Below are positions 3,001-6,000 of a DNA stretch of 51,577 bases, one piece after another; position 1 is the first letter of the stretch; each line of letters opens with the position of its first letter. This DNA comes from Pseudobdellovibrionaceae bacterium (GTDB taxonomy: Bacteria > Bdellovibrionota > Bdellovibrionia > Bdellovibrionales > Bdellovibrionaceae), in contig JBGGMM010000149.1 of NCBI GenBank assembly GCA_041288045.1, forward strand, positions 1 through 51,577, read 5' to 3'. Made by a program: the position numbers.

Positions 3001-6000
3001 AGTCCCGGGCTATTCAGAATCGCCGCCATGAGTGAGCACTGGGGAAGGTCCAATTGCTCCAATGGTTTGTTGAAGTAATACTGAGAGGCGGCCCCATAAC
3101 CACGGACTTGAAAGGGTCCGTTCTGTCCCAGATAAATCACATTCAGATAAGTCTCAAGAATTTCATCTTTGCTCGAATGAGCTTCCAAAAGCACCGACAT
3201 CGCAAGCTCAGTCAATTTTCGCTTTAAAGTCTTTTCGGAAGTGAGAAAATAATTTTTCACCAGCTGTTGGGTGATTGTGCTTCCGCCTTGCCGAAAGCGA
3301 CCACCAAAGACATTGGCAACAAAAGCTCGCGCCAGGCCAGTGAAAGAAAATCCTGAGTGCTCGAGAAATTTTGAATCCTCAATGGCCAAAACCGCATTCA
3401 AGCAAACTGTCGGAATTTCCCCCAAGGCTTTATAGCTTTGCATGATCGGCTGGCCATCCAGGTACTGTGCGACCAATTCTGGCTCCAAAGAAATTTTTGC
3501 TGAAGTTTGCAGCGGATTTCCTTGAAAGGTGGCCACCAATTTATCCTCTGAGTCAAAAACGGCCATTTGCAGTGGAAACTGAGCCAATTCGGGATCAGAG
3601 GTCTCTTTCACTGAAAAAAGCAGACAGGTCTGACTGGGCGCCGAAAATTCCGCTGGCAGGGATCCGCGACAATTTTCAATCGAATTTTCAGAATAATCCC
3701 CTGGGAAAAGCTTTTGTTCCCAATCTCTTTGTCGATACTGACGAGTCGCGAGAATTTTTTTAAAATCCTCCCGAAGCAAAGAGGAATCCACAGAAAAATC
3801 CAAAGTCGCCGAATAGTACTCGGTCGGAGGCAGAAAGCGCTTTTGTGCGAGGCCTTCTTGAATGCGTTGATTGAAGCGATAAAGCAGTGCTGATCCCACC
3901 GCGATGACAAGGCAGGACAAGATTGCGAGAGCCCAGAGGAAAGGTTTGAGTTTCTTCATCAGTGGCTTGACTTTACGGGGGTGGAAGCAAATAGTCAAAG
4001 CCATGAAATTGACTCCTTTGCAAATGCAAAAACTGGTCGAAAAAGTTTTCGAGCAATGGAAGAAAAATAACGTCATCATTTTCAAAGAAGATGAAAAAAA
4101 AGCCTTCGCTCGAGCGGTTGAGGCCGTGAAGGCCGACTATCAAGCCGAAGCCGATCTTGAAGGCGAAGTGAACAAAATGCTGGATCAGTTAGAGCGCACC
4201 AATTCTGGAGAATTTCAGCGCTACAAAATGTATCCCATCCTCAAACAAAAATTGGCGAAAGAAAGGAAGATCGTTCTGTGATCATTTCTGAAGATCGCCA
4301 GTCCCATCTTGCCCACAAAATCACCGACTCCATTTGGAACGATGATCTTGTCGATTACACCGATGAGGATTTGGCTTTGCGGTTAGCAAAAAAAGCAATT
4401 ATTGAATTCGTCAAAGAAGACCAAGAAGTCGATCAAAGAGCCCGCGACAAAGTGGCTTCCCTGAAAAGGGGAGTGGTCGAGGGCAGCCCTGAGTGGGACA
4501 TTCTCTATCGAAAGTATTATGAAGAAGAAAGAGGCAAGCGTGGCAAAGGCTAAAAAGAAAAAAGCGGCACCCGCCAAGAAAGCCACAGTCAAAAAAAGCA
4601 AAGCTCCGGCTGTAAAAAAAGCCAAAGCAAAGCCTCAAGTAAAAGCAAAACAAAAACCAGCAAGCGTCATTGACTGGCATGACTTCCTCACGCCATTGGA
4701 TGATCGACTGATCGTTGAAACAGCTTCTGACGAACGAATCACAGCTGGCGGACTTTACATCCCAGACACAGTCGCTGATCTTTCAGGAAACTTCAAAGGT
4801 CGAGTTCTCATCGCTGGCCGGGGACATCGTGATGAAAAAGGTCGCTTGCGTCCCATGGACGTGAAAACTGGCGACACTGTGCTTTTTGCTGAGTACTCGG
4901 GTTCAAAATTAGAATTGCTTGGCAAAGAAGTACGCATTTTACGTGAATCTGAAATTTTAGGAATTGTTGATAAAAGGTAAGGATTGAAAATGATGAAATC
5001 TGTTTTGAAAACTGTTGTTTGTCAGACGGCTTTGCTGGGGCTGACTTTGGGATCTGCTCTTTCAGCTCAAGCTCTTTCCATCGACTGGTCAGGAACATAT
5101 CGTTTTGAATACACCGAAGTGGATAAAACTTCTTTGGATGATCCAAGCTTGAGAAAAGCTTACTTTTTGAATCATTTAAGCCTCAGTCCAAAAATCATTG
5201 CCGCTGATGGCGTGAACATTGTCGGTAAATTTGAAATCCTTCCCAACGACCAGTATCCAGATTCGCAAGCTGGACAGCCTTTTGGCCGAGGACCGACTAA
5301 GGCAGGAACAACAAGCTCAACCAAAGATGACAGTGCAGTTGCTGGTGACAAACAGGGATCATCGACTTTGAAAGTGCAGCAGCTCTATCTGACTGTGAAT
5401 CAAGAGTATGGAATGTTGGTTGCTGGCCGAGCTCCTTTGGATTTTGGTTTGGGAATCAGCCACAGTGCCGGTAATGGAGCTTTTGATCACTGGTATTCAA
5501 CCAGAGACATGGTCGGTTACAAATTTTTGATCGGGAATTTCTCTTTCATGCCGATCATGGGCAAAGTTTATGACCAATCCGTTTCACAAGGTGAAGAAGC
5601 TCAGGATGTTATTTGGCATGTGGATTACACAAATCCCGAAACTGAATCTTCCATCGGAGTCATGCACCAGTCACGAACCGCAAGCCCCGAAGCCAACGAC
5701 GCTCCAGCTTCACAGTACAGCAGCACAGGCGTAGTGGCGGGTCGATGGAACACTCAGCTCATCAGCATTTATCTGGCTCGCGGTTTTGAAGACGTCAAAT
5801 TCAAAGTCGAAGCTGGATTTGAGTCGGGCTCAACCGGAGTGCAAGTCGGCAACACCAACACAGAAGAAATTTCTTTGAACGGCTATGGAATTGCTGTCGA
5901 GCTGGATTTCCCAAATCCACAAAGCCGATGGCACTGGAATTTGAAAACAGGGATCGCCAGCGGCGACAACCCAACCACAACCAATTACGAAGGATTCCAT

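Follow-up and report, generated by a model that had tools for sequence, protein, structure and literature searches.

The locus described here raises the question of why a second GroES, encoded away from groEL, should begin with a lysine-, alanine- and proline-rich tail of histone H1-like composition, and whether such a protein still acts as a subunit of the chaperonin lid or has passed into the service of chromatin. The gene lies in a window of 51,577 nucleotides, the whole stretch of DNA that was analysed, from a Pseudobdellovibrionaceae bacterium.

Results

The groES2 gene and its surroundings

The reading frame that an earlier note on this DNA had placed at this position is indeed open for 146 codons from its GTG (Table 1), and the Pfam Cpn10 match is, as stated there, confined to residues 50–143 (E 3e-21). 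A recount of residues 1–45 gives 33/45 Lys, Ala or Pro (73%, previously 72%), the overlap of the start with the DUF507 stop has the same length as reported, and the canonical groES, which had been located on contig C182, maps to C182:2712-2987(-); it and the window gene are the two Cpn10 matches in the genome. Of the GGAG/GAGG ribosome-binding site previously proposed, the GAGG ending 5 nt before the GTG is present and GGAG is absent; orthologous loci carry a purine-rich stretch at the matching position. Since the first internal methionine is residue 106, in line with the earlier claim that none precedes about residue 105, and TTG 4696 (Leu53, within PLDDR) is the one further codon of a start type close to the domain, a short form lacks a usable start in the window. 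The in-frame ATG 4519, inside the DUF507 gene, would give 153 aa and was rejected as a start because it is unconserved, whereas the GTG is conserved.

The gene order is widely kept. Among 42 groES2 loci, the penicillin-binding protein gene lies on the opposite strand in 41, the DUF507 pair is present in 36 and the outer-membrane gene follows groES2 immediately in all. The start of groES2 overlaps the DUF507 stop by 8–17 nt in 26 of 30 loci, which likely reflects translational coupling, and the four genes from the first DUF507 gene to the outer-membrane gene probably form one operon; a promoter scan of the locus, with 4 sites against 2.8 expected, was uninformative. The window has DUF507 split into two adjacent half-genes (4006-4553(+)). 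DUF507 as an obligatory partner of GroES2 was rejected, as both halves are missing from two genomes (G047 and G067) that nevertheless retain the tail. The true start of the penicillin-binding protein is probably downstream of the listed TTG. The outer-membrane protein matches TIGR04551 weakly, below the cut-off; its B. bacteriovorus counterpart, Bd3348, is abundant and is labelled "outer membrane" in the table of Hocher et al. 2023 (PMC10627809).

Table 1. Features at and around groES2 (positions in the window)
Feature	Position	Strand	Basis or remark
Metallo-beta-lactamase-fold gene	707-1696	+	Pfam
Class A penicillin-binding protein, divergent neighbour	1698..4085	-	Pfam match
DUF507 gene, N-terminal half of model, first gene of probable operon	4006..4281	+	
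DUF507 gene, C-terminal half of Pfam model	4278..4553	+	Stop overlaps groES2 start by 14 nt
GAGG, ribosome-binding-like site	4531..4534	+	Inside DUF507 gene, 5 nt upstream of GTG
groES2, 146 aa from GTG, orthologue of B. bacteriovorus bd3349	4540..4980	+	Open frame, Cpn10 domain, neighbours, tree
N-terminal Lys/Ala/Pro tail, 41 aa	4543..4665	+	41% K, 80% K+A+P, no D/E, net +17
Complete Cpn10/GroES domain	4666..4980	+	Short pre-strand helix, mobile loop GGLYIP, two-residue post-loop insertion, roof segment GRGHRDEKGRLRPM
Probable outer-membrane protein (secreted), orthologue of Bd3348; closes the probable operon	4984..6474	+	Directly 3' of groES2
Terminator-like hairpin	6566-6589		After outer-membrane gene
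546-aa protein without Pfam match	6812-8452	-	
Lysine 2,3-aminomutase-like radical SAM gene	8427-9725	+	Pfam
UvrD helicase	9669-11990	-	Pfam

The GroES domain and its placement in the family

The domain is complete: Pfam Cpn10 (PF00166) scores 75.7 bits against a cut-off of 21.1 and is matched over model positions 2–93 of 93, while the AlphaFold (AF2) model forms a GroES barrel (pLDDT 74) whose best Foldseek hits are all Cpn10 (E 4e-8). Identity to the domain of the organism's own GroES1 is 42%. The mobile loop of GroES, a GG followed by a hydrophobic triplet, is the element that binds GroEL; as GG[LI][YFI]IP it is present in 30/30 GroES2 proteins. What GroES2 adds to the domain, fold and loop that it shares with the Cpn10/GroES family is the polycationic N-terminal tail, a more basic roof with a conserved His (net charge of the roof segment +3.2 versus −0.2 in GroES1) and an insertion of one or two residues after the loop; the interface motif reads TPLDDR in place of RPLHDR. 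The N-termini of GroES lie on the outer side of the dome, so that the tails would point away from the folding chamber. With a best score of 83 bits against the cut-offs of at least 96 of the NCBIfam GroES models (PRK00364 and others), which the organism's own GroES1 passes, and with DUF507 and the outer-membrane gene rather than groEL as neighbours, GroES2 is a member of the GroES family outside the canonical equivalog.

In a tree of the domain (96 columns, long branches present), a single branch with support 100/95 separates the domains of 54 tailed from those of 42 untailed proteins. Its position in this tree, together with the shared penicillin-binding protein and outer-membrane neighbours, indicates that the window gene is the orthologue of bd3349, which encodes 'GroES2' (Q6MI28, CAE78154.1) of B. 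bacteriovorus HD100. Both fall on the same side of the tree, share gene order, are second groES genes away from groESL and keep the GroEL-contact residues; they differ in the tail (116 aa in Bd3349 versus 41 aa) and in the DUF507 pair, which precedes the window gene and not the loci of genus g3. The HC2 model (PF07382) does not match the window protein, and Bd3349 reaches only 27 bits with it (E 5e-6, cut-off 40) and 27 against 80 with NF038053, so that by score GroES2 is not an HC2 member.

The N-terminal tail

Residues 1–40 have pLDDT values of 44–58 and no secondary structure in the AlphaFold model, and the tail is thus predicted to be unstructured. When the tail DNA was shuffled 2000 times, 32% of the shuffles were free of stops; the open tail of the window alone is therefore within chance, and the case rests on the orthologues. 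A query with the domain only was run against 61 genomes of the family, and among the best 30 loci 29 have an in-frame tail, which bears out the earlier report of tailed frames at the matching gene in other Bdellovibrionales. These 29 tails are 41–143 aa long, that of the window being the shortest, with 50–85% K+A+P, 0–3% D+E and a net charge of +17 to +44. The tailed proteins begin M-A-(x)-K from a start of fixed position, at which GTG (25) and ATG (4) alternate. In the remaining locus (L060, G171:C208), whose assembly is fragmented, the start is shared and a frameshift, either an assembly error or real, interrupts the A-rich tail before the GroES domain. The product of the per-locus shuffle probabilities, about 1e-58, is too strong a figure because the loci are related by descent.

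In genus g3, where 22 loci have no overlapping DUF507 gene, AAAGG[AG] stands 6–8 nt before the GTG of the tail in 22/22. Among pairs of this genus with more than 80% identity (12 of 231 pairs, not independent of one another), the tail has a pN/pS of 0.07–0.45, and in the same close pairs the pN of the domain is near zero, a sign of strong constraint. The tail is present in 117/120 database homologues and in 129/134 parsed representatives (150 listed), and in 0/42 canonical groES loci. Together, these patterns show the tail to be a coding part of the gene, under purifying selection.

These results bear on the gene model of bd3349, which Lambert et al. 2012 (PMC3464611) shortened from 224 to 117 aa because its 5' part is repetitive. 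The methionine of that model is found in 4/22 loci of genus g3, and the last 25 tail residues are free of methionine in 13/22. The database records disagree, with 224 aa in GenBank/UniProt (CAE78154.1, Q6MI28), 117 aa in RefSeq (WP_226988049.1) and 219 aa elsewhere; the last of these agrees with the conserved start and is likely the true form. The call for a correction in the earlier note is thus supported for the 117-aa model, while GenBank and UniProt still carry 224 aa. Constructs designed from the 117-aa record would miss the very feature that distinguishes Bd3349.

A tail peptide was not found in the published proteomics tables searched, nor was a tail-junction peptide present in the seven supplementary files of PMC12546842, which apparently are not peptide lists. 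The number of peptides was rejected as proof of the tail: the 17 unique peptides recorded are all explicable by the 117-aa part, which could yield 19–28 with missed cleavages.

Distribution

Among the matches listed, at least 93 of 151 genomes of the order have a stop-free match through the tail in tblastn-type searches, a 94th (G087) has one with a flagged stop, and 57 have no tailed copy; at the family level at least 42 of 43 genomes match through the tail. Across 127 genomes from the phylum's other orders, the matches listed include no tailed copy, and the 14 records of a phage collection that match the domain are canonical groES-like, with none matching through the tail. An Atlas look-up returned GroES clusters only. 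One of them, of 129 aa, has a score similar to that of the tailed form and is most frequent in Minisyncoccota; another, of 144 aa, is most frequent in Pseudomonadota. GroES with an N-terminal extension may occur elsewhere.

Bd3349 in published proteomics

The attack-phase gradient of Hocher et al. 2023 (PMC10627809) provides nucleoid/top ratios for 2,235 proteins with iBAQ values; the scale was taken as log2 because the histone Bd0055, at +3.36, is called 10-fold enriched in the text. On this scale Bd3349 stands at +5.08 (about 34-fold) and ranks 91/2,235 by iBAQ. GroES1 (CAE77776, matched via a named orthologue; pI 5.9, no tail) is at +2.78, or about 7-fold, with an iBAQ of 20.3M versus 16.7M for Bd3349, and GroEL, whose accession was inferred from order and alignment length, is at −0.74. 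In Leptospira, under the same protocol, GroES is at −6.39, GroEL at +0.39 and RNA polymerase at +4.1 to +4.3. Since an untailed, acidic GroES1 would be expected to enter the nucleoid fraction only with a partner, mixed rings would be the simplest account. The gradient buffer contained EDTA, so that the absence of GroEL from the fraction would be uninformative on capping.

Bd3349 is abundant and enriched in the nucleoid fraction, and membranes are co-enriched there. When medians were taken by localisation label over rows 14–333 of the table, abundant cytoplasmic-labelled proteins (n=111) gave +0.25, inner-membrane proteins (n=45) +3.57 and outer-membrane proteins (n=18) +5.28, with 12 proteins at or above 5.08 in the first and 12 in the last of these classes; Bd3348 is at +5.74. 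Nucleoids prepared with spermidine are, moreover, known to carry cytosolic contaminants (PMC3082553). The table labels Bd3349 itself periplasmic, which we regard as a prediction artefact, since nothing after the basic start resembles a hydrophobic signal. The only other tailed protein that could be placed, bL21, is at +2.16 versus −0.66 for bL27 (the mapping of accessions being inferred), which fits a general effect of the tails, real or artefactual; most accessions of the ribosomal cluster, of presumed identity, are near 0. In terms of iBAQ, a measure that is uncertain for Lys-rich proteins, GroES2 in the nucleoid fraction amounts to about 8% of the histone copies, about 29% of the histone basic residues and more net charge.

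The earlier note had drawn support from late expression at septation, an argument that is weak because the protein is present throughout the cycle. In Lai et al. 2025 (PMC12546842) Bd3349 is detected at all 11 time points and gains +0.56 log2 by 4 h versus +1.37 for GroES1, and in whole attack-phase cells its published intensity is 7.3e8 and that of GroES1 3.9e8. The product of the outer-membrane gene shows a late, shallow rise similar to that of Bd3349.

Discussion

The best explanation, to which we would give about an even chance, is that GroES2 still works as a co-chaperonin subunit and that its tail anchors rings composed of GroES1 and GroES2 on the nucleoid. GroES2, with its H1-like polycationic tail, would join GroES rings, probably together with untailed GroES1; the tails and the more basic roof would bind DNA without sequence specificity; and the rings so held on the dense nucleoid would cap GroEL beside the ribosomes at the nucleoid surface, or would be stored through the attack phase. 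The tail lysines might also neutralize and bridge DNA. DNA as the ligand, the mixing of rings, the retained capping of GroEL and the purpose of the arrangement are what we infer. The tethering of a functional co-chaperonin is favoured because the mobile loop is kept throughout, the domain is constrained and GroES1 follows into the fraction, where the Leptospira GroES is depleted; the conservation of the tail at 29/30 loci, its selective constraint and its presence in nearly all database homologues are further support. Against this stand the enrichment of outer-membrane proteins to the level of Bd3349 and the fact that all functional data come from the B. bacteriovorus orthologue with its tail of 116 aa, not from the window protein with 41 aa. 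Any polycation may, besides, attach to DNA once the cells have been broken.

Lambert et al. 2012 (PMC3464611), having discarded the tail, proposed an alternative lid alone, and lysine and nucleoid are unmentioned in the text of that paper, the only relevant one found on groES2/bd3349. In the literature searched, which left subscription papers and bioRxiv supplements outside its scope, no GroES with a histone H1-like tail was found, and neither was an experiment on DNA binding by GroES2 or on its effect on the nucleoid; GroES is likewise absent from the B. bacteriovorus chromosome papers and reviews searched by term, and lists of chromatin proteins omit Bd3349. In composition and in its PAKK/KAAK motifs, the tail resembles those of HupB, HupS, AlgP, PhaF, actinobacterial TopA, Ku and HC2. 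It differs from them in being N-terminal and fused to a co-chaperonin rather than to a DNA-binding or granule domain, and its likeness to HC2-type families is compositional, with scores below the family cut-offs. Such a tail drives nucleoid binding of HupB (PMC5676037), and H1-like tails occur on TopA, Ku, HupS and HrdB (PMC7398561). A duplicated chaperonin component tied to the nucleoid has a parallel in GroEL1 of Mycobacterium tuberculosis (PMC2731897), which, however, is a large subunit able to bind DNA on its own, whereas GroES2 is the lid and would do so via an added tail. Chloroplast Cpn10/Cpn20 show that co-chaperonins can act as hetero-oligomers in mixed rings (PMC4242682), as is suggested here for GroES2, though they have neither a polycationic tail nor a link to the nucleoid. 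If the tethering of GroES2 is real, a dedicated subunit positions the folding machinery on chromatin, and another abundant polycation has to be reckoned with in explaining chromosome packing in the predator; the idea can be tested in a genetically tractable model.

Alternatively, the tail may be a generic polycation of the lineage that serves the chaperone cycle, through the capture of acidic clients (the co-transcribed outer-membrane protein, for example), contact with an anionic membrane or solubility, the signal in the fraction being due to co-sedimentation with membranes or to sticking after lysis. This would be consistent with an enrichment equal to that of outer-membrane proteins, with the outer-membrane gene that always follows groES2 and its similar late rise, with the values presumed to be those of bL21 and bL27, and with the tails of bL21 and other proteins without a known DNA role; ten tailed frames in one genome suggest that the tail may be a habit of the lineage. 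Yet neither a hydrophobic signal nor a membrane segment comes after the basic start, tails of such make-up bind the nucleoid or polyphosphate where this has been tested, and most of the presumed ribosomal accessions are near 0. We consider this explanation unlikely, though it deserves to be taken seriously.

Rather improbable is the possibility that the tail has a polyanion other than DNA as its ligand, either polyphosphate granules or RNA, and thereby places the ring at granules or ribosomes in the region of the nucleoid. AlgP, with its KPAA-repeat tail, sits on polyphosphate granules and spaces them, although DNA is a ligand of AlgP too, and without polyphosphate kinases the protein is distributed across the nucleoid (PMC9239181). 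Attack-phase B. bacteriovorus does contain polyphosphate granules, and ribosomes line its nucleoid (bioRxiv 2022.06.13.496000); dense granules would presumably sediment, but the presumed ribosomal proteins are not enriched in the fraction.

A dedicated compactor, less likely than a tethered co-chaperonin, is close to the proposal of the earlier note that a DNA-binding Cpn10 fold has been recruited as a chromatin protein. A ring scaffold with seven H1-like tails would here compact progeny nucleoids, the role of lid being secondary or lost. The DNA-directed part of that proposal gains from the co-sedimentation of the orthologue with the nucleoid fraction; a chromatin role in place of that of the lid is made less likely by the conserved mobile loop, the constrained domain and GroES1, whose co-enrichment fits a co-chaperonin ring. 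The share of basic residues relative to the histone, uncertain as iBAQ makes it, would allow a part in compaction, scores below the canonical GroES cut-offs, the basic roof and TPLDDR for RPLHDR point the same way, and the mode of nucleoid compaction is an open question in the literature. The small rise at septation and the lack of a listed tailed copy in many genomes of the order and in those of other orders speak against such a dedicated role, and we hold it to be quite improbable. Finally, that the tail is untranslated and the short 2012 form real, the upstream frame being open through low complexity, is very hard to sustain despite the argument from repetitiveness (PMC3464611), the 117-aa RefSeq record, the frameshifted locus and the lack of a tail peptide in the tables searched, since the window offers no usable internal start, the 2012 methionine is rare and the end of the tail often methionine-free in genus g3, the ribosome-binding motif there is invariant, pN/pS is well below 1 and GTG and ATG alternate at one site.

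It is tempting to extend the tethering of GroES2 further, to Bdellovibrionales at large, in which the nucleoid excludes even small proteins. Mixed GroES1/GroES2 heptamers might coat and cross-link it, forming alongside the histone one of its major polycations, and holding GroES off GroEL or delivering it according to the stage of the life cycle, as one of several machines docked by tails (the ribosome via bL21, TopA, a SWIB protein), which would also account for the layer of ribosomes that tomography shows. This extension is a speculation that we think more probably wrong than right by a clear measure.

Lys/Ala/Pro stretches of this kind occur in 10 of the 18,627 stop-to-stop frames of this genome, among them bL21, a SWIB protein and, with likeness to topoisomerase I, a frame which we take to be TopA. 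The bL21 tail, present in this genome and in G047 (L067:501-1079(-) and L075:1498-2061(-)), is C-terminal and Lys/Ala-rich and could bear on the ribosome coat of the nucleoid. Further tailed frames are L064:501-968(-), L065:591-1082(+), L066:627-1499(+), L068:582-938(+) and L069, the first four of which have tailed orthologues in G047; three of the five are without a Pfam family, one has a SWIB domain and one is topoisomerase I-like. A domain-less protein (L063:522-971(+); L070:1315-1929(+)) combines an H1-like basic N-terminal half with a strongly acidic C-terminal half, has a weak HC2 hit only, and is a candidate nucleoid or DNA-mimic protein.
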